Positions 3,639-59,585 of a stretch of DNA of 64,000 nt are shown here, in pieces. Position numbers and translations under genes: made by a program. Each line of letters begins with the position of its first letter. The first letter of the stretch is position 1. Source of the stretch: an uncultured Bacilli bacterium. GTDB taxonomy: Bacteria; Bacillota_I; Bacilli_A; RF39; UBA660. The stretch spans positions 67,128 to 131,127 of the forward strand of contig CAKOMD010000002.1 in assembly GCA_934096555.1 (NCBI GenBank), given 5' to 3'. The notes below the pieces were generated by a model. It was not told where the DNA came from, made no database searches, and saw only the letters and a list, made by a program, of their open reading frames with translations.

Positions 3639-3965
3639 ATGAAAGAACTACCAAAAATGTATCATAATAACATAGATAAAAATATTAATAATAATGAAAA
3701 AATATTTTCTACTATGTATAATAATGATATAGAATTAAGGAGTACCAATAACTTTATTAACAATAAAAATAATTATACAGTAGAACAAAAAATATATAAT
3801 ATATTTAATTCTCCTAATTATATTTATAAAATAGATGTTATTATTGTTACAGATAAAGGAAAAAGTAAAAAGAGAATAGTAGGTAAAACTAAAACTAATT
3901 TAATTACTATGGATAATGAATATATCCCAATTAATACTATCAGAGATATTTATATAGATAATTAG
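3639..3965 (+). CDS. Hypothetical Asn-rich protein
   Basis: 108-aa ORF with RBS agaggtga upstream. No recognisable motif. Confidence 0.4.
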   Translation: MKELPKMYHNNIDKNINNNEKIFSTMYNNDIELRSTNNFINNKNNYTVEQKIYNIFNSPNYIYKIDVIIVTDKGKSKKRIVGKTKTNLITMDNEYIPINTIRDIYIDN

Positions 3966-3984
3966 GTTAGTATCCTAAATATAG

Positions 3985-4065
3985 CTTATATATAATAGAT
4001 ATGTAGATATATTATTTATAGACCTTAGGCTATAAATAACACTATGAGACCATAGACTCATAGTG
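3985..4065. repeat. Composite intergenic repeat: 29-nt box plus two loop-conserved hairpins
   Basis: Box cttatatataatagatatgtagatatatt (3985-4013). Hairpin atttatag[ACCTTAGG]ctataaat (4014-4037). Hairpin cactatgag[ACCATAGA]ctcatagtg (4040-4065). Confidence 0.85.
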
Positions 4066-4141
4066 AAATAACCAAAAGAAGTTATAATACGACTTCTTTT
4101 TTATAATAATTTGTGGTATTATTATATTACAGGTGATAATT

Positions 4142-9026: not shown

Positions 9027-10196
9027 ATGGAGATGATAACAATTTACAAAGGATTTAAATTTAGACTATATCCCAATAGCTCGCAGGAAGAAAAAATAAA
9101 CAAAACTTTTGGATACAATAGATTCGTTTATAATCATTATCTAAATCAAATAAGAAAGGAAGGTTATAAAAATGTTAATTATTATATCAAAGATTACACA
9201 ACCAATTTAAAATATACTTACCCCTTTTTAAAAGAGGCTAATCCAATACTTATTAGAAAAACATTATATAGACTTGAAGATAATTATAAAAGATATCTTA
9301 ATAGTAGTTTTGGCTATCCAAAGTATAAAAGTAAATATGCCAAAAACTCCTATAGTATAACTTTTGACAGTAGTAATGTAGGCACGAACTATCAAAATGT
9401 AAGCCTAGATTTAAAAAACAAACGAGTCGAGGTGCCAGAGTTAGGAAGATTAAAAATAAAAGGTTATAGGCATATTCAGCAGATAAATGGTAGAATAGCC
9501 AATTACACAATTTCAAGAGAAAAGAATGGTAAATACTATATAAGTTTTTTATTTGAATTAGCTAACATTAATAAAATAGTACCCAGTGTAGTAGTGGGCT
9601 TAGATCTTGGTCTAAAAAAATTAATAACGCTATCAGATGGTATAACCTATAATAACAACAAATATATAGCAAAATATGAAACCAAAATAAAAAAAGAACA
9701 GCAGAATTTATCAAGAAAACAAAAAGGAAGCAAAAACTACTACAAAAATTTAAAAAAGTTAAATGTACTCTATGTAAAACTATCAAATTCTAGAAAGTAT
9801 TATACTCATAGTATAACCAAAGAAATAACGGACAATTACGATATTATAAGTACAGAATCCTTAACCACAAAAAAGATGATAATGAATAAACAAAATCATT
9901 TATCAAAAAATATCGTTGATGTTACACTAGGTGAAATATTAAGGCAGCTAGAGTATAAATCAAACGAAAAAGGTAAATATTTTTATAAAATAAGTCCATA
10001 TTATCCATCCAGCCAAACGTGCAGTGTATGCGGTAATATAGATAGAAAATATAAAAATTTAGATAAAAGAATCTACAAATGTAATAAGTGTCAAAGCATA
10101 TTAGATAGAGACTATAATGCTAGTATAAATATTATGTTTGAAGGATTAAAATTATATATGAAAGATGCCAAAGAAAAGACTATAACTACAAGTTAA
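9027..10196 (+). CDS. tnpB: TnpB (OrfB) RNA-guided nuclease-like transposon protein
   Basis: N-terminal YKGFKFRLYPN. RuvC-like residues GLDLG, ..TESL.., DRDYNASINI. Zn ribbon CSVCG..x..CNKC. Confidence 0.85.
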   Translation: MEMITIYKGFKFRLYPNSSQEEKINKTFGYNRFVYNHYLNQIRKEGYKNVNYYIKDYTTNLKYTYPFLKEANPILIRKTLYRLEDNYKRYLNSSFGYPKYKSKYAKNSYSITFDSSNVGTNYQNVSLDLKNKRVEVPELGRLKIKGYRHIQQINGRIANYTISREKNGKYYISFLFELANINKIVPSVVVGLDLGLKKLITLSDGITYNNNKYIAKYETKIKKEQQNLSRKQKGSKNYYKNLKKLNVLYVKLSNSRKYYTHSITKEITDNYDIISTESLTTKKMIMNKQNHLSKNIVDVTLGEILRQLEYKSNEKGKYFYKISPYYPSSQTCSVCGNIDRKYKNLDKRIYKCNKCQSILDRDYNASINIMFEGLKLYMKDAKEKTITTS

Positions 10197-10315
10197 AAAG
10201 CACTATTTCTTTAGGCAAAAAAATAAAGTACGGTAGCCAATATCGGAATTAATGTCTGCGAGTGAAGTTAATGCTAACTATCACAAACAGAAATATATCA
10301 CCTTGAGGTGATAAT
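10120..10315 (+). ncRNA. Putative omega/right-end RNA of the TnpB element
   Basis: Overlaps the tnpB 3' end. Locally GC-rich segment gtacggtagccaatatcggaattaatgtctgcgagtgaagttaatgc plus a terminal hairpin. Inferred from known TnpB biology; boundaries not determined. Confidence 0.35.
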
Positions 10316-14731: not shown

Positions 14732-14810
14732 CTCTCGTGCCTATAGTCACTCAAGGTTTTCTAATGCCTAAGGTCATTAGAAAAAAGTTTAGAGCCTGTA
14801 GTCTCTAAAC
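14732..14810. repeat. Loop-conserved hairpin repeats (three units)
   Basis: Degenerate cctctcgtg[CCTATAGT]cactcaagg. Then ctaatg[CCTAAGGT]cattag (14761-14780) and gtttagag[CCTGTAGT]ctctaaac (14787-14810). Confidence 0.8.
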
Positions 14811-14822
14811 TTAAGTATTATT

Positions 14823-17402: not shown

Positions 17403-17431
17403 TTGACAATACCCCAAATAAATTATATAAT
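17403..17431 (+). promoter_or_regulatory. Sigma-A type promoter of the aspS leader
   Basis: TTGACA (17403-17408), 17-nt spacer, TATAAT (17426-17431). Confidence 0.7.
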
Positions 17432-17437
17432 AAGTAT

Positions 17438-17585
17438 AGATTTTCTGTTACTATGAGTGACAAATAGTATATAAAAAGATAGAAACGGTTGGTTCCGATA
17501 AAAACCAAATAAAAGAGCACATTAGTGAAGTAGGGTGGCACCGCGGATATATATTCGTCCCTATAGATTATTAATGTGTTTTTAT
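17438..17585 (+). promoter_or_regulatory. T-box riboswitch leader (Asp specifier)
   Basis: Conserved T-box sequence agggtggcaccgcgg (17532-17546). GAC in a specifier-like context (17459-17461). Terminator stem cacatta../..ttaatgtg plus T-run before aspS. Confidence 0.8.
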
Positions 17586-17608: not shown

Positions 17609-19351
17609 ATGAAAAACAAATACAGAACAATCTATTGTGGTGAAGTATCTACCACAAACATTGGTGAAGAAATAAGAGTAGCGGGCTGGCTTGAACAAAA
17701 GAGAAATCTAGGTAGTCTAGTATTCATGACACTAAGAGATGAAACAGGTGTAATACAGTTAATTAGTGAAGATATCGAAAGTTTTAAAGATATCACAAGA
17801 GAAAGCACTATGACCGTAACTGGAACAGTAAGACATAGAGCAGAAGGTATGACTAATCCAAATATGAAAACAGGTGAAGTAGAAGTTCTAGTATCCTCTT
17901 TTGAAGTACTAGGAGAAGCTCTAAATGTCTTACCATTTGAGATTAACAGAAGCACAGATGCCTTTGAAGATACTAGATTAAAATATAGATATCTAGACTT
18001 AAGAAATCCTAAAGTACATGATAGAATACTATTTAGAACAGAAGTATTAGATTACATGAGAAAAATAATGAAAGATATGAAGTTTACTGAAATACAAACT
18101 CCAATTATTACGGCTTCCTCACCAGAAGGAGCAAGAGACTTCATTGTACCATCAAGAAAGTACAAAGGAAAATTCTATGCACTACCTCAAGCACCACAAA
18201 TATTCAAGCAATTACTTATGTGTTCAGGATTTGATAGATACTTTCAAATAGCCCCATGTTTTAGAGACGAAGACCCAAGAAGTGACAGACTATATGGCGA
18301 GTTCTATCAGCTAGACTTAGAAATGTCTTTCGCAACAGATGAGGATGTCTACGAAGTAGGAGAAAAAATCTTTTATGATATATTTACTCACTTTAGTGAT
18401 AAAGAAGTATCTCCAAGACCATTCAGAAGAATACCATATAGAGAAGCCATGTTAAAATATGGTTCAGATAAACCAGACTTAAGAAATCCATTAATAATTG
18501 AAGATATTACTGATATCTTATCTAAGAGTACTTTTGAACCATTCAAAACATCTTACATCAGAGGTATAACAGTAACTAATATAGATAAATCAAATTCATG
18601 GTACAAATCTATTGAAGAATATATGAAGAGCGTTGGCGCCGTAGGTCTATCATACATCAAAGTAAATGAAGATATGACTTTCAAGTCTTCAATTGATAAA
18701 TTCCTAGATGATAGTCTAAGAAAAGAACTAATAGATAAATGTCATCTAGTTCCAGGTAGTGCTTTATTCGTACTAGCGGACTCTAAAAATAAAATTAACA
18801 AACTAGCAGGTCTTCTTAGAATAAAACTAGGAAGTGAACTAGATCTAATTGATAAGAATAAATATGAATTCTGCATAGTAAATGATTTCCCTATGTATGA
18901 ATATAATGAAGAAGATGGTAAGTATGACTTCGGACACAATCCATTTAGTATGCCTCAAGGTGGCCTAGATGCCTTAAAAGAGGATAATCTAGAAAATGTC
19001 CTTGCATATCAATACGACTTTGTATGCAATGGTTACGAGATGGCTTCAGGAGCCGTTAGAAATCATGACATCAAAATAATGAAGAGAGCCTTCGAACTAG
19101 CAGGCTACACTGAAGAAGATGTCGAAACAAAATTTAGAAGTCTATACACAGCCTTCCAATATGGTGCTCCACCTCATGCAGGAATGGCTCCTGGTATTGA
19201 TAGAATTCTAATGCTACTTAAGGATGAAGAAAACATAAGAGAAATGGTAGCCTTCCCACTAGGAGCTAATGGCGCTGATGCTATGATGGGCTGTCCTGGT
19301 GAAGTATTTGAAAAACAACTTAGAGAAACACATATCAAGGTAAGAGACTAG
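17609..19351 (+). CDS. aspS: Aspartyl-tRNA synthetase
   Basis: OB-fold N-terminus, class II motifs (FRDE.., GEFYQLD, GGLDR-like PGIDRILM). 580 aa. Confidence 0.92.
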   Translation: MKNKYRTIYCGEVSTTNIGEEIRVAGWLEQKRNLGSLVFMTLRDETGVIQLISEDIESFKDITRESTMTVTGTVRHRAEGMTNPNMKTGEVEVLVSSFEVLGEALNVLPFEINRSTDAFEDTRLKYRYLDLRNPKVHDRILFRTEVLDYMRKIMKDMKFTEIQTPIITASSPEGARDFIVPSRKYKGKFYALPQAPQIFKQLLMCSGFDRYFQIAPCFRDEDPRSDRLYGEFYQLDLEMSFATDEDVYEVGEKIFYDIFTHFSDKEVSPRPFRRIPYREAMLKYGSDKPDLRNPLIIEDITDILSKSTFEPFKTSYIRGITVTNIDKSNSWYKSIEEYMKSVGAVGLSYIKVNEDMTFKSSIDKFLDDSLRKELIDKCHLVPGSALFVLADSKNKINKLAGLLRIKLGSELDLIDKNKYEFCIVNDFPMYEYNEEDGKYDFGHNPFSMPQGGLDALKEDNLENVLAYQYDFVCNGYEMASGAVRNHDIKIMKRAFELAGYTEEDVETKFRSLYTAFQYGAPPHAGMAPGIDRILMLLKDEENIREMVAFPLGANGADAMMGCPGEVFEKQLRETHIKVRD

Positions 19352-19373: not shown

Positions 19374-20762
19374 ATGAAAAAAGATTATGCAGCAATATTT
19401 CAAAAGATTGAGCAAGACGATGTTACCTATTATGTACCAATTGATGTCGCTGAAGGCATATATTCAGAAAGAAACAATACCTTTACTGCCCACAATGTTG
19501 CTTTAAAACATATAATAGCAGGAGAAGACTATGGCTATTGTAATAGAGAAAACATAACAGCATTAATAAATAAACATAAATATATGTCTATGTTTATAGC
19601 TAAAAAAATAATATTAAATGAATTAAGAAAAGGTACTTATATTAGAATCAAACATGAAAGTGACCCTCCATTTATTAGATATATAAAAAAAGATGAAAAT
19701 AAGGTGTTAATGGAAGACGACATTACAAATTACTATATAAGATATTTTTCTGAAATTATTACATATGAAAATAGTGAAAAAGAAACACCGCAAAATATAG
19801 AAATAGACATAAATAAAATATATAGTGAAATAAAAAAGAAAATTCCAAATCAAGATAATCATATCAAAGAAATATTATCTATTATCTGGAGAGACTTCAA
19901 CAACTATCAAAATATCAAATCAAGAAGTATACTAATTAATGGTGAAAAAAGTTCTCCTAAAAAAGAAATATTTAATATAATTGAAGACAATATAAATATT
20001 CCAGTACTAAATACAAGTGCTATAAATAAATATAAAAATAATGTAACACTAAATACAGTTAATGATATCTTAATTAGTCTCTTAAAGAAATGTAATTATG
20101 ATATAAAGAAAGCCGAGACAAGTATTATTGTAATAGATGATATAGATACCATAACAATATTAGATCAAAACGACGCTAGGTTATTTGGTGAATATCAAAC
20201 AGATCTAATTAGATTAATTAATGGTCTACCATTTACTATAGAAATAGATGGTGATAGTTACACAATAGATACTAGTAAAATGCTTGTAGTTCTAATGGGA
20301 GATTTCATGAAATATGAAGAAGAAATACCTACAATTAAAGGCTTTTCTAATACTTCAAATAATCAAAGTAAACAAATGACAAGAATTGATTATCTTAATG
20401 AAGGACTACTAGAAGATTTAGTAATATCTATTCAGAATATTATTGAATTAGATAAGCCTACTACTAAAGAATATATTGCAAATATAAATAAAGATGAAGA
20501 TAATTCTTTAAATATTTCTAAGAAATTTCTAGAAAGTTTAAATATTAGGTTAACTGTAGAAGAAACTGCTATTAAGAGAATATCTGAAGTTATAGAGAAG
20601 AATGGTTATGCTGAAGGTCAAATTAATGAAATAATTGATAAGGCTTTAGCATTAGCGGCTTTTGAAATTGCTACTAATCCAAATACTTACGAAGAACTTA
20701 TTATTAGTGAAGATACTATTAGTGATAATAGTAAATATAAATTAATTAAGAGAAAGAAATAA
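19374..20762 (+). CDS. ClpX/HslU-like AAA+ fold protein with degenerate Walker A
   Basis: IVIDDIDT (Walker B-like), LVVLMGDF, and a C-terminal lid-like LTVEETAIKRISE...ALALAAFE. The position expected for GxxGxGKT reads LINGEKSSPKKE. Confidence 0.4.
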   Translation: MKKDYAAIFQKIEQDDVTYYVPIDVAEGIYSERNNTFTAHNVALKHIIAGEDYGYCNRENITALINKHKYMSMFIAKKIILNELRKGTYIRIKHESDPPFIRYIKKDENKVLMEDDITNYYIRYFSEIITYENSEKETPQNIEIDINKIYSEIKKKIPNQDNHIKEILSIIWRDFNNYQNIKSRSILINGEKSSPKKEIFNIIEDNINIPVLNTSAINKYKNNVTLNTVNDILISLLKKCNYDIKKAETSIIVIDDIDTITILDQNDARLFGEYQTDLIRLINGLPFTIEIDGDSYTIDTSKMLVVLMGDFMKYEEEIPTIKGFSNTSNNQSKQMTRIDYLNEGLLEDLVISIQNIIELDKPTTKEYIANINKDEDNSLNISKKFLESLNIRLTVEETAIKRISEVIEKNGYAEGQINEIIDKALALAAFEIATNPNTYEELIISEDTISDNSKYKLIKRKK

Positions 20763-20781: not shown

Positions 20782-20834
20782 CCCCTTAAGCCTGTAGTCT
20801 TTCGGGGCATAAGTGAGCCTAAGGTCTCACTTAT
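20782..20834. repeat. Loop-conserved hairpin pair
   Basis: ccccttaag[CCTGTAGT]ctttcgggg (imperfect) and ataagtgag[CCTAAGGT]ctcacttat. Confidence 0.8.
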
Positions 20835-20877
20835 AAAAATATTTTTGTATAATTATTGTCAAATAATGATAAATATA

Positions 20878-20906: not shown

Positions 20907-20911
20907 TAAGA

Positions 20912-21095
20912 TACCTAGAGGATACGACATCTTTAGTATAAAACCGACTAAAGATATTAAACGGGGAGCTAATATAGTTTATGTGTTGAATACCTATCAT
21001 TGATAGGGATCCTAATTAGACTATTGTGCTGACCCACCTGTGACTTACGCCGCGGGTTTTATCTTACAGAGTCGGTCCATCTGGGTCTTTTTTTT
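20912..21095 (+). ncRNA. Structured ~185-nt ncRNA, candidate 6S RNA
   Basis: No ORF and locally GC-rich. The 5' gatacctagagga can pair with the 3' tccatctgggtc. Also accgact/agtcggt and cctatc/gatagg helices; ends in T8. Lies between aspS and the tcdA (yrvM) homolog, where I recall B. subtilis bsrA being located. Confidence 0.4.
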
Positions 21096-25887: not shown

Positions 25888-26439
25888 ATGAAGTATAGTT
25901 TTGATAAAAGAACCAAAGTATTAATAATATTATTATCCATGTTTATAGGAGCAGTATTTGGATATATTTATGAAGTAATCTTCTATAAAATAGATACAGG
26001 TCATTTTATTAATCGTGGTACTACTTTTGGACCATGGATACCAATATATGCCTACGGAGCATTACTAATATATTTAACTACTAGTAAAATAAAAGATAAA
26101 CCTATGTATGTATTCTTAATTAGTACTCTAGTATGTGGTATATTAGAATATACTATTGGTTATCTTTTATATCGTATAAGTGGTACAAGACTATGGGATT
26201 ATAATACAGAGATATTAAACTTTGGTAATATAAATGGTTTTGTCTGCCTAAGATCAGTATTATTCTTTGGTCTATCAGGATTGCTTCTAATGTATCTAGT
26301 AGTACCAACAATAGAAAAACTAGCTCTAAATATATCCAAAAAGAAGTTTAGTATTATCAGTATAGGTTCATTTTCAATATTCTATGCTGATACTATCTAT
26401 AATCATATAATAGCCAAAATAATAAACTACATAAAATAA
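25888..26439 (+). CDS. Polytopic membrane protein (putative ABC-transporter type IV-like family)
   Basis: The GYLLYRISGTRLWDYN motif is reminiscent of PF06541-type proteins. Start taken at internal Met 25888. Confidence 0.45.
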   Translation: MKYSFDKRTKVLIILLSMFIGAVFGYIYEVIFYKIDTGHFINRGTTFGPWIPIYAYGALLIYLTTSKIKDKPMYVFLISTLVCGILEYTIGYLLYRISGTRLWDYNTEILNFGNINGFVCLRSVLFFGLSGLLLMYLVVPTIEKLALNISKKKFSIISIGSFSIFYADTIYNHIIAKIINYIK

Positions 26440-26444
26440 ATATC

Positions 26445-26497
26445 ATAATGAAGACCTTAGGCTTCATTATGCCTCTTAAGACTACAGGCTTAAGAGG
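26445..26497. repeat. Loop-conserved hairpin pair (reverse orientation)
   Basis: ataatgaag[ACCTTAGG]cttcattat and cctcttaag[ACTACAGG]cttaagagg. Confidence 0.85.
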
Positions 26498-26519
26498 TAA
26501 TAAGAAAGTAAGTGATATC

Positions 26520-27434
26520 TTGATAAATATAGATAAATTAAATGCTAAGAATAAAAAACTATTATCAGACTATATAATAGAACTAAAAACAATCAAGCAA
26601 AGAGATAAAGATACAACAGTTAATTCATATAGTGAAGATATATATAAATATTTAGAATATATGGAAAGTAAAAATATATCTAGTGCTTTAGATATAAGCT
26701 ATAATAATTTATTAGACTATTTAAAGTACTTAGACGATAATAAATATGAAGTATCTTCAGTAGCTAGAAAAATAGTATCTATAAAAGCCTTTCATAAGTA
26801 TTTAAGTGAAAATTATAAAGTAATAGATATAAGTACCAAGATAAATACCCCTAAATTCTATAGAAAACTACCTAATATCTTAACTATTGAAGAAGTAGAT
26901 AATCTTTTAGATATAAAGTTAGATACTCCTTTTGATTACCGAAATAAGGCTATGTTAGAACTAATGTATTCCTCAGGACTTAGAGTAAGTGAATTAATTA
27001 ATCTAGAACTTAGTGATATAGATTTAAATAATAACTATGTAAGATGTTTTGGTAAAGGAAGTAAAGAAAGAATTGTACCAGTAGGAGAATACTCTTCTAA
27101 ATATTTAAGTATTTATATTAATGAATACCGAGATAGTATGAAGAAAGGTTATTATACTGAGAAGATATTTTTAAATAATCATGGCAGAGAAATGACTAGA
27201 CAAGGTTTCTTTAAAATTATTAAGAAAATTGCTAAAGATAAAGATATTAATAAGAATATAACACCGCATATGTTAAGACATTCTTTTGCTACACATCTAC
27301 TAAATAATGGAGCAGATCTAAGAACAATCCAAGAGATGTTAGGACATTCTAGTATCTCTACTACACAAATATATACTAATGTAACAAATGACATATTAAA
27401 AGAAAACTACGATTTATATAAAAGAAGGGACTGA
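26520..27434 (+). CDS. xerD: XerD/XerC-type tyrosine recombinase (start uncertain)
   Basis: RNKAMLELMYSSGLRVSE, HMLRHSFATHLLNNGADLRTIQEMLGHSSISTTQIYT. The first ~24 codons of the ATG-started ORF (26448) are made of the hairpin repeats, so TTG 26520 or nearby is proposed as the start. Confidence 0.75.
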   Translation: MINIDKLNAKNKKLLSDYIIELKTIKQRDKDTTVNSYSEDIYKYLEYMESKNISSALDISYNNLLDYLKYLDDNKYEVSSVARKIVSIKAFHKYLSENYKVIDISTKINTPKFYRKLPNILTIEEVDNLLDIKLDTPFDYRNKAMLELMYSSGLRVSELINLELSDIDLNNNYVRCFGKGSKERIVPVGEYSSKYLSIYINEYRDSMKKGYYTEKIFLNNHGREMTRQGFFKIIKKIAKDKDINKNITPHMLRHSFATHLLNNGADLRTIQEMLGHSSISTTQIYTNVTNDILKENYDLYKRRD

Positions 27435-27439
27435 TTACA

Positions 27440-28807
27440 ATGAAATTAAATAAATTAATGTTTAGAGAATATGATATAAGAGGAATATGGAATGAAGATA
27501 TAACAGAAGAAATATCTTATTATATTGGTAGAGCTTATGCTACTAAGTTATTAAGTTTAAAGAAAAATAAAATGATTGTCGGCTATGACAATAGATTAAG
27601 TTCTCCTATTATCGAGAAGAACCTAGTAAAAGGACTTACTGATGGTGGAGTAGATGTAGTAAGATTAGGTCTAGTTACTACTCCTATGTACTATTATGCT
27701 TGGGATAAATTAAATATCCACTGCGGTATAATGATAACAGCTTCACATAATCCAAAAGAATATAATGGCTTTAAAATGTCATATAATGGCATTCACAACT
27801 GTTTTGGTAATGAAGTAGTAGAATTATACTATATAATACTAAACGGCATCTATAGCGAAGGAAACGGCTCTATATCAAGTGCCAATATAAAAGAAGATTA
27901 TATAAAGATGATAAATAGTCATATCAATATGGGTAATAATAAATTAAAAGTAATATATGACTGTGGTAATGGTACTACATCTATTGTAGCCAAAGATATC
28001 TTTGTAAGTAATGATAATATTGAATATATTCCATTATTTGCTGAATCAGATGGAACATTCCCTAATCACCATCCTGACCCAGCGGTAGAATCTAATCTTA
28101 CTATTCTAAAAGAAAAAGTAAAAGAATTACACGCTGACTGTGGTATAGCCTTTGACGGTGATGGTGATAGAGTAGGAGTAGTTAATGAAAAAGGAGAGTT
28201 TGTTTCAATAGATAAATTCATGGTTATAGTATGGCGTGATATCTATAATAAAATAGATAAAAAAGAAGGCTTCTATGACGTAAAATGTTCTAGGGTAGTA
28301 AGTGATGAAATGATAAAACTAGGACTTAAACCAGTTGAAGTAAGATCAGGCAATTCTTATACTAAAAAAATATCAGTAGACAATAATTACCCATTCGGCG
28401 GAGAATTATCGGGACACTTATATTTTAGAGATAAGTTTATTGGTACTGATGATGGTATATATGCAGGCCTAAGACTAGTAGAAATACTATCACGTAATCC
28501 TAAAAAAGTAAGTGAACTTCTTGAAGGTATAACTAAGTATTATGATTATCCTGAAGAAAAGTTAACAGTAGAGGACTCTAAGAAAGATATCATTGTAAAT
28601 AGAGTAGAGAAGTACTGCATGGAAAAAGGATATAACTATTCTAAGATAGATGGTATTAAAGTGTTATATGATGATGGCTTTGCTCTAGTCAGAAAATCTA
28701 ATACAGGTCCTAATATAACCACTAGATATGAATCATCAAATAAAGAAAAATTAGAACTAATTAAGAAAGAGTTTGATAGTTTAATTATTAAGTATAGCAA
28801 GGAATAA
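27440..28807 (+). CDS. Phosphohexomutase (phosphomannomutase/phosphoglucomutase family)
   Basis: Active site TASHNPKEYNGFK, metal loop FDGDGDR, GELSGH. Confidence 0.85.
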   Translation: MKLNKLMFREYDIRGIWNEDITEEISYYIGRAYATKLLSLKKNKMIVGYDNRLSSPIIEKNLVKGLTDGGVDVVRLGLVTTPMYYYAWDKLNIHCGIMITASHNPKEYNGFKMSYNGIHNCFGNEVVELYYIILNGIYSEGNGSISSANIKEDYIKMINSHINMGNNKLKVIYDCGNGTTSIVAKDIFVSNDNIEYIPLFAESDGTFPNHHPDPAVESNLTILKEKVKELHADCGIAFDGDGDRVGVVNEKGEFVSIDKFMVIVWRDIYNKIDKKEGFYDVKCSRVVSDEMIKLGLKPVEVRSGNSYTKKISVDNNYPFGGELSGHLYFRDKFIGTDDGIYAGLRLVEILSRNPKKVSELLEGITKYYDYPEEKLTVEDSKKDIIVNRVEKYCMEKGYNYSKIDGIKVLYDDGFALVRKSNTGPNITTRYESSNKEKLELIKKEFDSLIIKYSKE

Positions 28808-28816
28808 GAAAGTATG

Positions 28817-28853
28817 AATAAAAGAATAGAGTAGAGTACCCTATTCTTTTATT
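28817..28853. terminator. Bidirectional intrinsic terminator
   Basis: Perfect 13-bp stem aataaaagaatag / ctattcttttatt between convergent genes. Confidence 0.65.
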
Positions 28854-28854
28854 A

Positions 28855-29028
28855 TTAAAATAAATCTTTAGAACTATTGTTATTCTTTTTACATGACTTA
28901 CAATCATCTTTATGACATTCACAAGTAGTATCGTCATGTGTTTCATCATCTTTATGACAATTACAGTCAAAAGTGTTAGACTTATCTAATTTATTATCAG
29001 TTTTAGATTTCTTATCTTTTTTACTCAT
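28855..29028 (-). CDS. Small Lys/Asp-rich protein with two CxCHKDD repeats
   Basis: 57 aa from ATG 29028, with GGAGG 8 nt upstream. Sequence ..CNCHKDDETHDDTTCECHKDDCKSCKK.. Confidence 0.5.
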   Translation of the reverse strand: MSKKDKKSKTDNKLDKSNTFDCNCHKDDETHDDTTCECHKDDCKSCKKNNNSSKDLF

Positions 29029-29126
29029 TTTAATTACCTCCATTAATATTATTAACAATAGGTAATATATTTATTCTTTAATTACTTAATATGAAAAAAT
29101 TGGCATATTGTTCTTCTATTTATAGA

Positions 29127-29154
29127 AGTTAACATAATATTGATTATAGGAACA
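29127..29154. other. dif-like Xer recombination site (best chromosomal-type copy)
   Basis: AGTTAACATAA-TATTGA-TTATAGGAACA. The reverse complement of the left arm, TTATGTTAACT, matches the E. coli XerD arm TTATGTTAAAT at 10 of 11 positions. Overall 22 of 28 to the B. subtilis dif as I recall it. Located at the coding-strand switch. Confidence 0.6.
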
Positions 29155-29177
29155 TCAATATTTTTTAAAATAGGCCA

Positions 29178-30083
29178 TTATTTGCCCGTCTGAATTAATT
29201 CTATAAAATCAATATCATTTCCAGTATATATATCTTTATATTGGGAAGAATAATCAATAGAACAATTACTAATTAAATTATTAAAATATTTTAAATCATT
29301 TTCATTTGATAAATCTAAATATTCTTCACAAGGCTTATTTAAGTTTTGGGAGTTAAAGTATCTATGCTTACCAAATAATTTATTATCTATATCTTTAGTC
29401 ATATATTTACAGATATATGAATAAATCTTTTTATAATCTCCTTTTATAAAATCAACTCTAGCAAAACCTTTTGACCAATACTTAACATCAAATAGGGTAG
29501 TTAAATCTTTAGTTTTTTCGGTTCTTTCTTTTTGAGGAATAATAATATTAGTATCTCCCCTACCTAGATTTGATAATATATGATAATGAACAGCACCTCT
29601 TTTTTGAAACTCTGGAACTGCTATATATTTAAAATCTTTTTTTAATCTACGAATGTTTGATGCCCAATTATGAAAAATCTTATTAGCATAAACAATATCA
29701 GTAATATTTTCTTTAAAAGTTAAAGTAATAAAACTTTCCCAACTATCTCTATTTGATTTAGCAATTCTTTGACAATTCATATTGCTACGAATTGCATTAG
29801 AAAGCAATATTGATTTAACTTCCTCTACTCTATCAGGTTTATATAAATTATCAGTATCAATATCTTTAATACTCATTTTTGGTAATTCTTTATCTCTAAT
29901 GTTATCTTTTGACCTAGAAACTGGGAACTTGTAAACTTGTAAAGTGTCTCCACAATGAATAATTTTTACATCATAAATTATTCTACTTTCTACATCTTTA
30001 TACGCAGATATGAGACTACTATCAAGTAAAGGAGCAGCCGGGTGTTTCACACCCTCGCTCGTAGTCTCATTTATATGTATCAT
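29178..30083 (-). CDS. HUH rolling-circle replication initiator
   Basis: Motif 1 FITLTF, motif 2 GAVHYHIL (HUH), motif 3 YSYICKYMTKD (catalytic Tyr). Confidence 0.8.
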   Translation of the reverse strand: MIHINETTSEGVKHPAAPLLDSSLISAYKDVESRIIYDVKIIHCGDTLQVYKFPVSRSKDNIRDKELPKMSIKDIDTDNLYKPDRVEEVKSILLSNAIRSNMNCQRIAKSNRDSWESFITLTFKENITDIVYANKIFHNWASNIRRLKKDFKYIAVPEFQKRGAVHYHILSNLGRGDTNIIIPQKERTEKTKDLTTLFDVKYWSKGFARVDFIKGDYKKIYSYICKYMTKDIDNKLFGKHRYFNSQNLNKPCEEYLDLSNENDLKYFNNLISNCSIDYSSQYKDIYTGNDIDFIELIQTGK

Positions 30084-30104
30084 ATTATCACACTCCTATT
30101 AAAT

Positions 30105-30235
30105 TGAAGGCTGTCGCCCTCGTGGGGAACCCCTGCCCCACTTCACCTACTTTAGTATAGGGGCAAGCCCCTATTACCCCATTTTATAAAATTATCGCTA
30201 TAGCTTACTCGTCCGCTTCGCTCCCACTGACGATA
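30105..30235 (-). other. GC-rich intergenic region of the prophage (candidate origin/packaging region)
   Basis: Hairpin ataggggc-aa-gcccctat (30157-30174), ggggaacccc (30124-30133), palindrome gctatagc. Lies between the rep and ATPase genes. Strongly GC-enriched versus flanks. Confidence 0.4.
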
Positions 30236-30243
30236 TAAGTTAT

Positions 30244-30891
30244 TTATGTTTTTATTTGTTCAAAAGTATCATAAGAGTTAGCAACAGATAAATTACATTT
30301 ACTTATAGTGGTTTCAGTCAGAGGAGCAATATACTCATTATCTTCTTGAGACCATTTCATTTGTTCAGCATCATACATACTTTTTATTAATACACCTAAA
30401 CCAAGAAGGTTTAACATTTTGCAATCTATTTGATATCTACAGTATCTACGAAGAGTTATATTAATCTCAAGCCACTCTTGAGCAGTAGTAATAAATATAA
30501 TTCTTCTCTTTCTCATTTGTGATAAGAAATCTAAAACATCAGTATTAATCTTGCTAGATTTAGTTAATGCAGTAAATATTTCGTCATAAAATATAATACA
30601 ATCGTGTTCATTTCTTAATTTAAGCAAATTATCAAAACCAGTAAAATAAGTGTAGTTAACGCCTTTAATAGTAGAAACATTAGCATAAATAGGCATATGA
30701 GAATTATTAAGAATAAACTCTACTGCAGAATAAGTTTTACCAGAACCTTGTTTACCGCAATAACAATAAACCCCAAACTTACCTCTTTTAGGAGCAAAAC
30801 CTTTTTTAAAAAAAGTTTTCCATTTAATTTTAGTATGTCTAAATCTAATAAGTAAAATAACAATTAAAATAATTAAAAATAAATAAATCAT
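30244..30891 (-). CDS. Zot/pI-like assembly ATPase
   Basis: N-terminal TM, Walker A GKQGSGKT, Walker B CIIFYDE. 215 aa. Confidence 0.65.
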   Translation of the reverse strand: MIYLFLIILIVILLIRFRHTKIKWKTFFKKGFAPKRGKFGVYCYCGKQGSGKTYSAVEFILNNSHMPIYANVSTIKGVNYTYFTGFDNLLKLRNEHDCIIFYDEIFTALTKSSKINTDVLDFLSQMRKRRIIFITTAQEWLEINITLRRYCRYQIDCKMLNLLGLGVLIKSMYDAEQMKWSQEDNEYIAPLTETTISKCNLSVANSYDTFEQIKT

Positions 30892-30933
30892 AATATTCCT
30901 TTCTTAAGCCGAGCGGCTTATATATAAAGCCGC

Positions 30934-31233
30934 TTACGGCTTTAACTTGTTATACCATCTTAATGCTAACTTAATCATATAAAAGAGCATTGGAGCAGTT
31001 AATTTAAATGTAAAATATAATACAATTAAAGAAAGTGTTTCATTTGATAAACCTAATGTACTTATACCCCAACCTATTGATTGACCTACTAGATTAAAGA
31101 AATTACCCACTGCAGTTAAAGCATTTGATAAATCTGGCAGAGCAGTTTCTATTAATGCATCAATTGGGGCAAGAAGTAAACTAACTAGACCAATAATAAG
31201 TTTCATTATACCCATTAAGATTTTATTAATCAT
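30934..31233 (-). CDS. Phage membrane protein
   Basis: 99 aa with 3 hydrophobic segments. Start overlaps the stop of the upstream gene. Confidence 0.5.
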   Translation of the reverse strand: MINKILMGIMKLIIGLVSLLLAPIDALIETALPDLSNALTAVGNFFNLVGQSIGWGISTLGLSNETLSLIVLYFTFKLTAPMLFYMIKLALRWYNKLKP

Positions 31234-32633
31234 AAATCTAACACCTCTATTCTATCTTCGTCTGGGTTTTTAAACTCTTTAACTAAAGCAAATATACGAA
31301 CACAAACCCAGTAAGCAACTATACCAAAAGTAATGGTCTGATAAATAGTAAGAAAAGAACCGAAATTCTCTTGATATATAGAACTCATACAAGGTAGTGT
31401 TAATTTATTATTCTTAGATAAAAAGGGTATATCTAGAGCTAAAGGACTACAAGTACTAGATGTTATGCTACCAATTAAAGTTAAAGGAGCGGTAATTATA
31501 GAAGTTAAGCCAAATGTTTCAGTAGTAAAACCACTAAAAAATTCGTTTGCTTTATTAGTACTATCGGTAGTATTGTCATCATTTAAAGTATCATTTACCT
31601 CGCCTATTTTTTCATTAGTTTTATCAATCTTACTAGTACATTTTTTATTTAAAATTATTTTACCAGAGTATCCTTCAATTTTAGAATTTAAACGAATGTA
31701 TTTTACATTAGAATCTGTTATAGTAAAAGTTTCTTGTCTTAATGAAGAAATCTTTTTATAATTTGAATCATAGGTTTCAACAAATAAAGAAGTAAAACCA
31801 GATTGAGTATAAGAATAACCATACTTTACAGGTATATATGAAGTAATTAACCAATTACTATTTTCTTCTGCATTTCCATCTCCTATTAAATCATAACCAT
31901 TTATTACAGAAAATGAAATATTTTGTTCTGGCTCACAATCATTAAAATTATCATTTATAGAATCTTTAATATTGTTTTCGCTATCTTTAACAGTTGTAGA
32001 AATATTGTTAAAGTTATTATTAATGATAGTATTAATTTTATCACTAGTAAGAGTATCTCCTAAACCTAAAGAAGTAATATTATAACCATAAAGATAATAA
32101 ACATCAGTACATCTTGAAGCCATGGTAAAAGGTAATGTTATATAATTACCACTAGCACCAGCAACAAAAACAAAAGATAATCCTTTATTACCAGATACAG
32201 AATAATCACTAAACTTAATTACTGAATTGCCCCCATTTTGATAAGCATTTTTTGAAGAATTTAAAGAGCCACCAATACCAATACGATTAACACTAGACAA
32301 ATTAGTATAACCACAACCAGTAGCTCCAACAGAAACAGTTAAAGAATAAGCATAACCAGACATTAAAGGCTCATTAAGGTAAAAACCTACTGCTCCACCT
32401 GAAGTACCAGGAATTGTAATAAAAGAATCAGACATAAAAAACATATCATTACCACCATTATTAATTAAATCAGTAGACTTAGCAGTTAAAGAACCATTGT
32501 TATTATCATAAAACTGAGCAGATGACGGAACTATAAGACCATCAGTTGAAAGAGCATTAACAAATAAAGTATCGACCAAAAAGAAAGATACAAAACATAA
32601 TAAAATTGATAATATTTTTTCTTTTTTACTCAT
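31230..32633 (-). CDS. Secreted, C-terminally anchored phage protein (pIII-like adsorption protein candidate)
   Basis: Signal peptide, 400-aa Asn/Ser/Gly-rich ectodomain, C-terminal TM. This is the topology of inovirus minor coat proteins. Confidence 0.5.
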   Translation of the reverse strand: MSKKEKILSILLCFVSFFLVDTLFVNALSTDGLIVPSSAQFYDNNNGSLTAKSTDLINNGGNDMFFMSDSFITIPGTSGGAVGFYLNEPLMSGYAYSLTVSVGATGCGYTNLSSVNRIGIGGSLNSSKNAYQNGGNSVIKFSDYSVSGNKGLSFVFVAGASGNYITLPFTMASRCTDVYYLYGYNITSLGLGDTLTSDKINTIINNNFNNISTTVKDSENNIKDSINDNFNDCEPEQNISFSVINGYDLIGDGNAEENSNWLITSYIPVKYGYSYTQSGFTSLFVETYDSNYKKISSLRQETFTITDSNVKYIRLNSKIEGYSGKIILNKKCTSKIDKTNEKIGEVNDTLNDDNTTDSTNKANEFFSGFTTETFGLTSIITAPLTLIGSITSSTCSPLALDIPFLSKNNKLTLPCMSSIYQENFGSFLTIYQTITFGIVAYWVCVRIFALVKEFKNPDEDRIEVLDL

Positions 32634-32968
32634 TAGTTAAACCTCCTAAATAACCTCATAAATATCTTGAAAGGTATATAAAAACTAAATATAACCATAA
32701 TTACAAAAATAATTAAAATACTATCTATATCATTACGATAAAAAACATTATCAGTAACAACATCTGTTGATAAACAAACTGGTAAATAAGTTTGATAATT
32801 ACCAAATGACTGGGTATTATCTTTATAAATGTAATTACTATTTATATAATAATCTCTATACTCAACTTCAGTATTTCTTTGAGGTACTTCTTTATATGCT
32901 CTTATAATATCAGAAGACTGAACTACAAAGCATTTATAATTTTGAATATCAGGAACATAAATATGCAT
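32633..32968 (-). CDS. Phage membrane protein
   Basis: Start at ATG 32968 with AGGAGG upstream. C-terminal TM. Stop/start overlap with the next gene. Confidence 0.5.
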   Translation of the reverse strand: MHIYVPDIQNYKCFVVQSSDIIRAYKEVPQRNTEVEYRDYYINSNYIYKDNTQSFGNYQTYLPVCLSTDVVTDNVFYRNDIDSILIIFVIMVIFSFYIPFKIFMRLFRRFN

Positions 32969-32972
32969 AATA

Positions 32973-33086
32973 TTACCTCCTACCAAATAATAGACTACCG
33001 ATAAAGTCAAATAATATATAAATGGCAATAACTGGTACTATTAAGTCAACCATTTCTTTCATAAAAGCTATAGCAATATCAAACAT
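32973..33086 (-). CDS. Small hydrophobic phage ORF (37 aa)
   Basis: MFDIAIAFMKEMVDLIVPVIAIYILFDFIGSLLFGRR. Overlaps the upstream ORF by ATGTTTGA. Not in the supplied ORF track because it is under 60 aa. Confidence 0.45.
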   Translation of the reverse strand: MFDIAIAFMKEMVDLIVPVIAIYILFDFIGSLLFGRR

Positions 33087-33222
33087 CTTTATCACTTCCC
33101 CAAATATCAGTATCTATATGTAATTTATTAAAAATTAATTCAAAACTAAGAGAAATCTTTTTATATAAATAAATTATTAGAATACCTAATAAACTAACCA
33201 TAAGCCCAATTAAATAAATCAT
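33079..33222 (-). CDS. Small hydrophobic phage ORF (47 aa)
   Basis: MIYLIGLMVSLLGILIIYLYKK... RBS AGGTGG 5 nt upstream. ATGA overlap with the preceding ORF. Confidence 0.5.
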   Translation of the reverse strand: MIYLIGLMVSLLGILIIYLYKKISLSFELIFNKLHIDTDIWGSDKDV

Positions 33223-33374
33223 TTATTCCACCTATCCTTTCTTTTAAATGAAAATAAAGGTCTACATTCTAAATCTATAAATAAATCTTTGTTTGTTTTA
33301 ACTTCCCATTTTACTAATAAAAAATGAATTAATGTATAAATAACTATAAATATTAACAATTGATAAACTGTCAT
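33219..33374 (-). CDS. Small hydrophobic phage ORF (51 aa)
   Basis: MTVYQLLIFIVIYTLIHFLLVKW... Strong RBS gaaaggag. Confidence 0.5.
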   Translation of the reverse strand: MTVYQLLIFIVIYTLIHFLLVKWEVKTNKDLFIDLECRPLFSFKRKDRWNK

Positions 33375-33430
33375 AATATTATCTCCTTTCTAAAAAAATA
33401 AGGAGTAGGCTTTTCCACCTACCCCCATGA

Positions 33431-33637
33431 CTAAAATCTAACTTTACCTTTACTAGCACCCTTGATTAACTTTCTTAGGAAATATAAACCAAGAGAAGCG
33501 ATAGTAAGAGTTATAACCCAAGGCATTAAATCAGAAACAGTACCGAATAAAGTACTTGAAGTAATACCGGTATTTAATTTACTAACTACTTCACTCATTG
33601 AACCAGTAGGAGCAACAGTATCTAAAGCATACAACAT
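33431..33637 (-). CDS. Major coat protein-like (pVIII-like)
   Basis: 68 aa with a central hydrophobic helix WVITLTIASLGLYFL and a basic C-terminus RKLIKGASKGKVRF. RBS aggaggaaaagg. Confidence 0.6.
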   Translation of the reverse strand: MLYALDTVAPTGSMSEVVSKLNTGITSSTLFGTVSDLMPWVITLTIASLGLYFLRKLIKGASKGKVRF

Positions 33638-33688
33638 ACCCCTTTTCCTCCTTTCTCCTTAATTTCTATCTAAATTGATTATTATCAA

Positions 33689-33868
33689 CTAAAAAGGCAT
33701 TTTTGATTTTTTATCACTATCATTAGATAATTTAACTAATTCTAGTTCAGCAGGCTTTAAAAATACTTTCATTGAATATGTTGGAGTTAACTGAATAACT
33801 AAACATTGATAAGTACCTGAGCCATCTTTTTTATTTAGTGTTTCTAATGTACATTTAACTTCTTTCAT
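33689..33868 (-). CDS. Small soluble phage protein (ssDNA-binding protein candidate)
   Basis: 59-aa ORF MKEVKCTLETLNKKDGSGTYQCLVIQLTPTYSMKVFLKP.. with RBS aaggagag. Its position just upstream of the coat gene matches gene V in inoviruses. Function is inferred only from position and size. Confidence 0.4.
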   Translation of the reverse strand: MKEVKCTLETLNKKDGSGTYQCLVIQLTPTYSMKVFLKPAELELVKLSNDSDKKSKMPF

Positions 33869-33871
33869 TTT

Positions 33872-34123
33872 TTACACTCTCCTTTCTAACCATTTAATGA
33901 TTTTATTAATTAAAATCTTTTTTTTAGAATATTTAGTTTTAAAATAATCAGAAGAGCTATCGCAACTAATTAATTTACCTTTATCAGTTATAAAAAACAT
34001 ACATACAATTTTATGATTATATTGATTTTCATAACCTATCTGATACTTATTATTCCAAAAAGCAGATTTAATTTTTTTAGCATAATAACATTTTTTATGA
34101 GGATTGAAATAAATTACTACCAT
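33872..34123 (-). CDS. Hypothetical phage protein
   Basis: 83-aa ORF with no convincing RBS, so the start is uncertain. Confidence 0.35.
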   Translation of the reverse strand: MVVIYFNPHKKCYYAKKIKSAFWNNKYQIGYENQYNHKIVCMFFITDKGKLISCDSSSDYFKTKYSKKKILINKIIKWLERRV

Positions 34124-34450: not shown

Positions 34451-34468
34451 TTCTTATACTCCTTTCTG

Positions 34469-34544: not shown

Positions 34545-34569
34545 TACAATTTTATTAGAGGTGTAAAGT

Positions 34570-37106: not shown

Positions 37107-37207
37107 AATATCCCCCTCTTATTGGCGAATATTATATCATAAACAAGTGTTTGTGTCAAGCACCATAAAATTTATCTAATAACTGTAGTTTATGTATATA
37201 CCCTATG

Positions 37208-37292
37208 CTTATATATAATAGATATGTAGATATATTTATTAGAGACAATACTTTGGCTCTAATAAACACTCTAGAACCTTAGATCTAGAGTG
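37208..37292. repeat. Composite intergenic repeat: 29-nt box plus two hairpins
   Basis: Box identical to 3985-4013. Hairpins tttattagag[acaatactttgg]ctctaataaa and cactctaga[ACCTTAGA]tctagagtg. Confidence 0.85.
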
Positions 37293-37314
37293 TCATAACA
37301 TATAATAAATAATA

Positions 37315-40162: not shown

Positions 40163-40258
40163 CACTATAAGCCAGTAGACTGTCTTATTAGTGTTTATTT
40201 GAGCCAATATGTTATATTGTCTCAAATAAATATATCAGCCATATCTATTATATATAAG
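40163..40258. repeat. Composite intergenic repeat (reverse orientation)
   Basis: Hairpins cactataag[..]cttattagtg and tttatttgag[ccaatatgttatattgt]ctcaaataaa, followed by box variant aatatatcagccatatctattatatataag. Confidence 0.8.
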
Positions 40259-40277
40259 AGAGATTTATATATTTAAA

Positions 40278-41036
40278 TTAAAACAAAAACTTAAAGAGCA
40301 TAAATACTACTCCTATTACAAAGAATAATAGTAGATACTTCTTATTATTATACCTTCTAGCGGTCGGTAGTAGTTCACAAAAAGATATTTGAAGCATAAT
40401 ACCCGCGATTAATGAGAATAATATACCAAGTACTATGTCATTAATAAAGTTCTTTAAAAATATGAATGCTAAAAGAGCTCCTAGTGGTTCTGATAAAGCA
40501 GATACTAATGTATAGAAGATAGCTCTTTTTCTACTACCAGTAGAATAATAAATAGGTACCGATATACTAATACCTTCAGGTATATTATGCATAGCAATGG
40601 CTATTGCAAGAGATAGTCCTAGTTTAATATCACTTGAAGTAGCTACAAAGGTAGCGATACCTTCAGGTAAGTTATGTAATATTATTGCTATCATTGATAT
40701 TATACCTATTTTAAATAAGGATTTATCTTTAGTATCTTGAGGTGGTTTGTCTGGTAGATAGTAATCAATTATCATTGATATTACTATACCTAAAAGTAAG
40801 CCTAAAAAACTAATTACTATGGTAGTTATTTTGCTTAGATTATTACTAAGTAATATTAATGATTCTGGTACTAAATCAGTTACTGATACTGTTATCATAA
40901 CACCCGCTGCAAAAGCAAGTGAAGCCATAACTATCTTATCATGATTTTTCTTTTTTATAAATATTACTAGTACTCCAATCATTGTAGAAAACCCTGCGAA
41001 AAAAGTAAGTAAGAATGCTAAAAAAGTATTATTCAT
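40278..41036 (-). CDS. zupT: ZIP-family zinc transporter
   Basis: HNLPEGIATF and HNIPEGISISVP motifs, 8 TMs. Confidence 0.85.
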   Translation of the reverse strand: MNNTFLAFLLTFFAGFSTMIGVLVIFIKKKNHDKIVMASLAFAAGVMITVSVTDLVPESLILLSNNLSKITTIVISFLGLLLGIVISMIIDYYLPDKPPQDTKDKSLFKIGIISMIAIILHNLPEGIATFVATSSDIKLGLSLAIAIAMHNIPEGISISVPIYYSTGSRKRAIFYTLVSALSEPLGALLAFIFLKNFINDIVLGILFSLIAGIMLQISFCELLPTARRYNNKKYLLLFFVIGVVFMLFKFLF

Positions 41037-44224: not shown

Positions 44225-44254
44225 AGAGGATATTATTCCTCTTCTTTTATATAT

Positions 44255-44307
44255 CCTCTTAAGCCTTGGTCTTAAGAGGCAATTTGAAGCCTAAGGTCTT
44301 CAAATTG
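44255..44307. repeat. Loop-conserved hairpin pair
   Basis: cctcttaag[CCTTGGT]cttaagagg and caatttgaag[CCTAAGGT]cttcaaattg. Confidence 0.85.
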
Positions 44308-46560: not shown

Positions 46561-46641
46561 CACTTAGAATTGCTATCTCTAAGTGTCATTTATAGCCTGT
46601 AGTCTATAAATGATATATCAGCCATATCTATCATATATAAG
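46561..46641. repeat. Composite intergenic repeat (reverse orientation)
   Basis: Hairpins cacttaga[attgctatc]tctaagtg and tcatttatag[CCTGTAGT]ctataaatga, then box variant tatatcagccatatctatcatatataag. Confidence 0.85.
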
Positions 46642-46679
46642 AGAGGTTATTATACCTAAAAAATTTGTAATAAAAAGAT

Positions 46680-56871: not shown

Positions 56872-56965
56872 CAGTTCAAGCCTTAATAAATTAAGTCTTT
56901 CACTGTTATCTTAAGCCTTATTCTAAGTCTTAAGATAATATATCTACATATCTATTATATATAAG
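56872..56965. repeat. Composite intergenic repeat (reverse orientation)
   Basis: Degenerate hairpin, then hairpin ttatcttaag[ccttattctaagt]cttaagataa, then box aatatatctacatatctattatatataag (56937-56965). The box is the exact reverse complement of 3985-4013. Confidence 0.85.
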
Positions 56966-57045
56966 CCATATCTATATACTAAAAGAAAGATATTAGTCAT
57001 ACCTTTCTTAGTAAAATATTTATAAAGAGGATTGTTATTTTATTA

Positions 57046-59495: not shown

Positions 59496-59547
59496 CATAA
59501 CATAGATCCTAGGCTATGTTATGCCTCTTAAGACATTAGCTTAAGAG
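59496..59547. repeat. Loop-conserved hairpin pair
   Basis: cataacatag[ATCCTAGG]ctatgttatg and ctcttaag[ACATTAG]cttaagag. Confidence 0.8.
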
Positions 59548-59585
59548 AAAAAAGAAAAGAGATACCTAAATTAATAGATATCTCT
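59547..59585 (-). terminator. Intrinsic terminator after rplQ
   Basis: Minus strand: agagata..tatctct stem followed by tttcttttttc. Confidence 0.6.

Follow-up and report, generated by a model that had tools for sequence, protein, structure and literature searches.

Why should a bacterial genome carry, at one intergenic site after another, short hairpins whose stems differ from copy to copy while their tips stay the same? The question is raised by a stretch of 64,000 nucleotides from an uncultured Bacilli bacterium (contig CAKOMD010000002.1, positions 67,128 to 131,127; this whole stretch is hereafter called the window), and in particular by a cluster of such hairpins that begins at its position 14732. 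A first-pass annotation, made from the sequence of the window, had reported hairpins of this kind at ten intergenic loci. The analysis described here shows that they belong to a dispersed family of common descent, which duplicates as whole cassettes, is lost or replaced at individual sites, and keeps both the pairing of its stems and a mismatched tip.

All ten loci were recovered, with 21 hairpins lying at the coordinates originally reported (Table 1), and a relaxed scan of the window, in which two deviations in the tip were allowed and six of the eight outer pairs sufficed, detected no further copies. The abundance is far above that of shuffled sequence. Perfect hairpins with a stem of at least 9 bp and a loop of 8 nt number 16 in the window, against a mean of 1.4 and a maximum of 4 in 60 dinucleotide shuffles, and eight of the window's perfect hairpins have a loop of the form CC....GT, which was seen in none of the 60 shuffles. 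Single-strand folding of the cassettes gave z-scores of -4 to -7.5, and more than 200 hairpins of the family were found in related loci.

Adjacent hairpins follow each other directly, head to tail on the same strand, in 92 doublets and 10 triplets. In the first hairpin (hp1) the stem is 9 bp long, its foot is C-rich and a pyrimidine internal loop is often present (e.g. CCCC TT AAG / CTT TC GGGG); the second (hp2) has a 10-bp AT-rich stem. Two types of cassette can be distinguished. Type B, of about 70 nt, consists of hp1 (foot CCYC...GRGG), hp2 and an AT tail of the form A-A-n-W-W-T-T-T-A-T, which reaches 17 nt in young copies. Type A, of about 115-125 nt, consists of hp1 (foot CACT...AGTG), hp2, an invariant 28-mer (TATATCnnCCATATCTATTATATATAAG; pattern TATATC nn CCATATCTATYATATATAAG) and some 20 AT-rich bases. 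The 28-mer, conserved at five loci of the window, had been missed in the first-pass annotation. RNAalifold revealed no conserved structure in the right part of Type A and supported the two hairpins alone, and no terminal inverted repeats are visible on the cassettes, whose ends were located to within a few bases. The reverse complement of the 28-mer contains TATAAT; a promoter reading of it was rejected, because any -35-like word lies at an unsuitable distance, and this distance is not conserved.

The invariant part of the hairpin is its tip, 5'-AG C C [T..R] G T CT-3', in which an A-T and a G-C pair are followed by a C•T mismatch, a C-G pair and a loop that begins with T. The loop is usually a tetraloop (TAAG, TGTA, TATA or TAAA) and may be up to 13 nt long. 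Of 192 hairpins, 183 have the closing AG..CT, and the fixed bases are A9 G10 C11 C12 ... G17 T18 C19 T20, all eight outer stem columns being variable. What had been described as a conserved 8-nt loop is not the invariant unit; it consists of the C•T mismatch, the C-G pair and the tetraloop which that pair closes. In 6 of the 21 window hairpins the apparent loop between AG and CT measures 7 or 12-17 nt, and in all six it begins with CC and ends with GT. In most of the longer ones (up to 17 nt) a further palindrome continues the stem and CC...GT is kept, the window hairpins at 40163, 40194, 56872 and 56906 being such palindromic extensions. As the tip is invariant, it is natural to think of a recognition that depends on sequence and shape.

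The claim that the stems differ and yet remain complementary holds for the pairing, but the stems are not unrelated to each other, as they share the hp1 feet mentioned above and, in the window, the stem CCTCTTAAG/CTTAAGAGG is found three times. Nor is the complementarity perfect throughout, several hp1 copies being imperfect and showing the recurrent pyrimidine internal loop. Covariation was measured on 150 distinct 28-mers picked by their 12-nt core alone. Partner cells were paired in 89% of cases, against 61% after shuffling, with a covariation score of 0.68 against 0.16, and none of 500 shuffles reached the observed values; when the partner columns were slid by one to three positions, pairing fell to 32-51%. 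The idea of covarying stems under a conserved structure is thus well supported. Among the stem mismatches, read on the AGCC strand, T•C (52), T•T (48) and C•T (36) make up 136 of 221, with 31 purine•purine; being biased towards pyrimidines and asymmetric between the strands, they indicate that the fold of one strand is the relevant one. On the other hand, G•T (24) and A•C (24) are equally frequent, and so there is no sign of the wobble tolerance of RNA.

Loop types swap at orthologous sites (GTAG, ATAG, AAAG, AAGG). The ordered pair that had been suggested, a GTAG-type followed by an AAGG-type hairpin, is not a rule, because 91 distinct pairs comprised 24 TGTA>TAAG, 16 TAAG>TGTA, 14 homotypic and, for the remainder, other combinations. 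Mixed pairs are over-represented, in a sample picked by loop pattern: the GTDB-derived loci were chosen with this pattern, which biases the loop statistics taken from them.

The same hp1 and hp2 with the same 17-nt tail (AACAATTTTGTTTAAAT) stand at three unrelated loci, of which the genome UROI01 contains two, and two nearly identical Type A cassettes lie 490 bp apart in locus L103. The cassette at 26444 is missing from the closest relatives, L004 and L041 (91-93% nucleotide identity), and L072 (83%) carries a cassette of different sequence at the same site. At 20782, L072 has no cassette, L004 has an additional Type A and L041 a truncated Type A. Lineages also differ in the cassette that they carry in one and the same terminator-promoter spacer, and in that of the region upstream of frr. 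The first-pass contrast with ordinary repeats was therefore overstated, since conserved feet, tail and 28-mer, identical copies and empty sites are those of a family of common descent.

The insertion at 26444 also bears on the gene next to it. The longest open reading frame (ORF) for xerD starts at ATG 26448 and reads through the cassette (26444-26497), and the first-pass annotation had argued that this start is wrong. The two closest relatives, which lack the cassette, retain xerD, and the start is conserved at the position of TTG 26520 (ATG in L072), so this point stands: on comparison of the sequences, the true start of xerD is TTG 26520 and that of the ORF caller is an error.

Within strains of one species, three stem pairs of the Type A cassette upstream of frr have changed on both sides, and intermediates also occur (C-G, C•T, A-T). 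Neither the 28-mer nor the left flank varies, and in four strains the tip C has become A. In 30 orthologous groups, uncompensated stem changes number 11 and compensated changes 2. No signal of target-site duplication was found over 80 cassettes, the longest common substring of the flanks being 4.39 both in the real and in the shuffled data. Within the final 10 nt of their left flank, 36 of 79 cassettes (46%, against 12% genome-wide) have the word TTAT; TTAT-like words lie on both sides of two insertions whose empty site is known, and are also enriched at the tail end. A screen of the frr-anchored loci described below detected no further empty sites, and look-ups of empty sites at strain level through identical proteins returned too few contigs.

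The pattern scan, run on one genome per species, returned more than 112 loci. Of these, 87 are of low GC content (22-31%) and come from about 25 assemblies (species-level genomes) recorded as uncultured Bacilli, Tenericutes, Clostridium sp. CAG:302 and Firmicutes CAG:321; the high-GC matches are unrelated tandem repeats. The window itself shares 91-93% DNA identity over 10 kb with Clostridium sp. CAG:302 (L041) and encodes sporulation proteins. In a further set of 80 metagenome loci, chosen by the frr gene alone, 36 perfect tip hairpins were found where RRF identity was at least 88%, and none where it was 83% or less. The same scan of IMG/VR gave three loci, one of which (L114, 68% GC) is an unrelated tandem repeat and two of which (L115, L116) were not readable, and a Type A cassette had no counterpart in phage and plasmid records by BLAST. 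At the gathering score, Rfam 15 matched only a T-box and 6S RNA in the window, both away from the cassettes, and permissive Rfam scans of the cassettes gave nothing but noise-level matches to miRNA-like hairpins. A literature search for the tip words found primers only, and the literature on REP sequences and RAYT proteins contained no matching family and described none from Firmicutes or Tenericutes. The hairpin cassettes are a previously undescribed family, confined to a narrow group of uncultured low-GC gut bacteria.

Comparison of the window (57046-59590) with loci L118-L150 showed a peculiarity of the region upstream of the frr block, in that strains with 97-99% identical RRF have different genes running into the same terminator, and rplQ lies within 10 kb of frr only in the window. 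The pattern resembles a breakpoint of synteny between strains, adjoining a Type A cassette.

With regard to genomic context, 38 of 91 Type B cassettes (42%) directly follow a separate intrinsic terminator of the same strand, against 20 of 111 (18%) in the opposite-strand control, and it is common for a cassette to separate a terminator from the promoter that comes next. The cassettes have no uniform orientation with respect to genes (>E> 38, <E< 26, >E< 15, <E> 8). Of the Type B cassettes, 63% are downstream of a gene in sense orientation; no gene-strand rule was found.

The explanation of these data that we favour, and to which we would give an even chance, is that the cassettes are lineage-specific, small, non-autonomous, REP-like elements that are read at the tip, as a folded single strand, by a putative protein. 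The cassette would act as a folded single strand, and a protein acting in trans would read its shape and its mismatched tip; on this proposal, the sequence of the stem would be free as long as it remains paired, and copies that lose the tip or the pairing would stop propagating. The likeliest kind of partner, guessed by analogy, would be an enzyme like the HUH/Y1 transposases, acting structure-specifically on single-strand DNA, with its gene elsewhere in the genome. Insertion would prefer T-rich spacers just past intrinsic terminators and would leave no duplication, and any effect on the ends of host RNAs would be secondary.

Candidates for such a partner were looked for, and the outcome is the first of several points that weigh against this explanation. 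No Y1/HUH transposase was found, by regular expression or by tblastn with an IS608 TnpA query, in the 0.77 Mb of low-GC DNA sampled, which amounts to a few percent of each genome. Nor did this sample contain a small gene flanked by cassettes, the only cassette-flanked genes being two large ORFs of 1,554 and 983 aa, or any long version of Type A or Type B. The window spans the replication terminus, the cumulative GC skew peaking near 28 kb, and no replication-strand rule emerged, the AGCC strand being on the lagging-strand template in 4 of the 10 window cassettes, a small sample. IS200/IS605 elements have a strong bias of orientation towards the lagging-strand template, and the lack of strand bias argues against a strictly IS608-like mode. 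Nor is TTAT, the word enriched at the left flank, invariant. Finally, most cassettes are kept at orthologous sites across species, and in the 30 orthologous groups the stems vary at about 4% of their positions and the tetraloops at about 9%; this lower variation of the stems fits a function at the level of the host, or correction at the level of DNA, as well as it fits a selfish element.

Pfam annotation of most ORFs of the window gave no candidate for the partner. The TnpB gene and the inovirus-like Rep of the window were considered in this role and rejected, as neither shares the hairpin tip. The TnpB gene (IS605 OrfB / Cas12f-like, 9027-10196) has no tnpA beside it, and about 100 nt downstream of it, at about 10299-10314, is a hairpin, ATCACCTTGAGGTGAT; the ends of this element are unrelated to the hairpin family. 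As for repeated genes near cassettes, ORF6N-domain paralogues occur in tandem, with up to three copies per 8 kb, in L028, L036, L018, L103 and L024, and in L018 and L036 the 3' end of an ORF6N copy abuts a hairpin cassette; YhcG/DUF1016 nuclease paralogues are found near Type A cassettes in L052 and L079. Neither group is consistently linked to the cassettes.

The persistence of cassettes at orthologous sites, with stems more conserved than loops, is also what would be expected if the hairpins were RNA elements selected by the host, that is stabilisers of 3' ends or of intercistronic regions, processing sites, or targets of an RNA-binding protein specific for the C•U-mismatched tip, and had spread or been kept because they are useful. 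The compensated changes that occurred in place within one species, the sense orientation of the majority of Type B cassettes behind a gene, and the position of the 26444 cassette in a probable operon spacer all agree with such a role. However, both orientations are common, many cassettes follow a terminator and precede the next promoter, where little RNA is expected, the equality of G•T and A•C is unlike that of most structured RNAs, Rfam offers no match, and the closest relatives do without a given cassette. We consider a host RNA role unlikely. The more specific idea of a termination signal, entertained in the first-pass annotation, did not hold up, because the cassettes usually lie downstream of a separate terminator, or between a terminator and a promoter, and occur in both orientations. 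Three hairpins between 14 and 27 kb do pass a loose terminator pattern, but the hairpins are AT-rich and mostly devoid of a T-tract. Intrinsic terminators with a favoured loop, together with ordinary miniature inverted-repeat transposable elements (MITEs) moved by a DDE transposase, form an alternative that appears highly improbable; the TTAT-like words around the two insertions with a known empty site would suit MITEs, against which stand the lack of terminal inverted repeats and of any duplication signal over 80 cassettes.

The perfection of the stems could also be a by-product of a process acting on DNA, such as template switching or intrastrand repair in quasi-palindromes, by which one arm is copied onto the other, the tip being kept for another reason, e.g. 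as a double-strand DNA binding site AGMC-N4-GKCT. The intermediates and completed double changes seen among strains of one species, and the absence of a wobble excess, are in line with this, and the change of the tip C to A in four strains, which yields a perfect pair (AGAC...GTCT), is just what it predicts. Yet such a process should erase the C•T mismatch and the pyrimidine loop of hp1, both of which survive in well over 100 distinct hairpins from about 25 species; in addition, uncompensated changes exceed compensated ones in the orthologous groups, and the identical cassettes at unrelated loci would be left unexplained. Correction of quasi-palindromes therefore seems to us quite improbable as the origin of the pattern. 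De novo snap-back copying of local flanks was rejected, as the stems are not derived from the sequence of the empty site and identical cassettes occur at unrelated loci.

Returning to the reading of the cassettes as mobile, single-strand-recognized elements, several known systems come close. The REP, BIME and REPIN sequences of Proteobacteria (PMC3733652, PMC3116915) resemble the present family in being short extragenic palindromes, clustered and in high copy number, with complementary changes in their stems, persistence at orthologous sites, lineage-specific families, and neither inverted ends nor duplications. What defines REP elements, however, is a GTAG or CGTC tag conserved at the stem's foot (PMC3733652), whereas here the foot is variable and the tip invariant. 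In addition, REPINs and most BIMEs are inverted pairs, while the hairpins of the cassettes all point one way, and the family occurs in a low-GC spore-forming Gram-positive lineage, with no RAYT gene found in the DNA sampled. The palindrome-associated elements derived from IS200/IS605, whose ends are recognized as hairpins by the Y1 transposase TnpA (PMC6006769), share with the cassettes two differentiated hairpins on one strand, the absence of duplications and inverted ends, and loss that looks precise; hp1 has a fixed unpaired pyrimidine patch, and a TnpB gene, which belongs to this IS family, is present in the window. They differ in that no related full-length insertion sequence or tnpA was found in the sampled DNA, that the TnpB element of the window ends without the tip, and that the flank word TTAT is enriched but not invariant and no replication-strand bias was seen. 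As the foot tag and the inverted pairing of REP are both lacking, and no IS200/IS605 parent was found, the family was placed in neither group.

The BOX and RUP repeats of pneumococci are composite, modular intergenic repeats of a Gram-positive organism, with hairpin-forming units, a variable number of modules and conserved module sequences. The cassettes are similarly modular repeats of hairpin units, but they keep only the tip, the pairing and, in Type A, the 28-mer. A bolder proposal is one that we regard as possible but on the doubtful side: the cassettes may be substrates of a new structure-specific enzyme or binding protein that reads the mismatched tip and not a foot tag, and may represent a hairpin repeat system of a new class, in which hp1 and hp2 are distinct modules and the 28-mer is an optional third; the cassettes might also have a role for the host at boundaries between terminators and promoters.

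Table 1. Hairpin cassettes of the window and the adjoining xerD gene (window coordinates).
Feature	Position	Strand	Parts	Surroundings
Type A cassette	3964..4066	(-)	hp1 4066-4040 (tip TCTATGGT); hp2 4039-4012 (CCTAAGGT); 28-mer 4011-3985; AT-rich right part to ~3964	Between ORF 3639-3965 and bidirectional terminator 4075-4105
Type B, focal three-hairpin cassette	14732..14812	(+)	Decayed hairpin 14732-14756 (CCTATAGT, 6/9 pairs); 14757-14784 (CCTAAGGT, closing TG/CA); 14785-14812 (CCTGTAGT)	After dtd terminator, between convergent genes
Type B cassette	20782..20846	(+)	hp1 20782-20807 (CCCCTTAAG/CTTTCGGGG, TT/TC internal loop, tip CCTGTAGT); hp2 20808-20835 (CCTAAGGT); AT tail	Between terminator of ORF 19374-20762 and 6S RNA promoter
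Type B cassette	26436..26498	(-)	hp1 26498-26472 (CCTGTAGT); hp2 26471-26444 (CCTAAGGT); tail ATATTTAT 26443-26436	Inserted in 80-nt spacer between CmpB-like gene and xerD
xerD-like tyrosine recombinase gene	26520..27434	(+)	Corrected (predicted) start TTG 26520	
Type A cassette	37186..37293	(-)	hp1 37293-37266 (TCTAAGGT); hp2 37266-37235 (12-nt CCAAAGTATTGT); 28-mer 37234-37208; right part	
Type A cassette	40163..40280	(+)	hp1 40163-40193; hp2 40194-40230 (17-nt palindromic 'loop'); 28-mer 40231-40258; weak AT hairpin (TATATAA/TTATATA) to ~40280	
Type B cassette	44254..44307	(+)	hp1 44254-44280 (CCTCTTAAG, 7-nt CCTTGGT); hp2 44280-44307 (CCTAAGGT)	Directly 3' of SpoIVB-gene terminator
Type A cassette	46561..46662	(+)	hp1 46561-46585 (decayed tip); hp2 46586-46613 (CCTGTAGT); 28-mer 46614-46641; right part	Adjoins 5' end of nusB
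Type A cassette	56872..56985	(+)	hp1 56872-56905; hp2 56906-56938; 28-mer 56939-56965; right part	Upstream of frr
Type B cassette	59496..59549	(-)	hp1 59549-59523 (7-nt tip CTAATGT); hp2 59523-59496 (CCTAGGAT)	Directly after rplQ terminator

Several other features of the window deserve mention. Near the terminus at 28 kb (region ~26500-35500), the peak of the GC skew coincides with a flip of the gene strand, and the terminus is flanked by xerD (26520-27434) and by a likely integrated filamentous-phage-like element, which encodes a rolling-circle Rep (29178-30083, Pfam REP_ORF2-G2P) and a Zot-like ATPase (30244-30891); the arrangement suggests that this element is integrated at a putative dif site. 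A type III toxin-antitoxin locus was recognized at 41173-42029, where a promoter-like stretch and two tandem 49-nt repeats (41240-41337) are followed by an ORF of 155 aa (41416-41883) that matches the NCBIfam model of the CptIN toxin (159.5 bits, with a cut-off of 90); a second promoter with one copy of the repeat is found at 41911-42029, without a toxin gene. A further ORF, of 162 aa (46785-47273, minus strand), contains a CdiA C-terminal toxin domain (Pfam CdiA_C, E 4e-15), adjoins a sortase-like gene and may be an orphan toxin module. The segment 22316-24002 (1.7 kb) has three ORFs without a match in Pfam, NCBIfam or PADLOC, and is cleanly missing from the syntenic relatives L004, L041 and L072. 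Among the structured RNAs, a full-score T-box lies upstream of pheST (56055-56246, minus strand) and 6S RNA at 20909-21091, and a sub-threshold T-box match (17418-17565, plus strand; 49 bits, E 1e-7), directly upstream of an aspartyl-tRNA-synthetase-like gene (17609-19351), is probably real but divergent.

The cassettes have practical consequences for the study of these genomes, in that they mislead ORF callers, as seen with the start of xerD, and mark hot spots of intergenic turnover; a related short-read contig breaks off about 57 nt beyond the gene, at a point where a cassette stands in the window. As the family is found at an RRF identity of at least 88% and absent at 83% or less, it also offers a clean comparative handle for identifying the partner protein. 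Outside Proteobacteria, REP-type repeats and their enzymes are hardly known, and a tag at the foot defines them, whereas the family described here, from uncultured, low-GC, spore-forming gut bacteria, keeps a tip with a fixed mismatch while its stems drift. Such a family would widen the known ways in which bacteria, or selfish DNA, make use of folded single strands.
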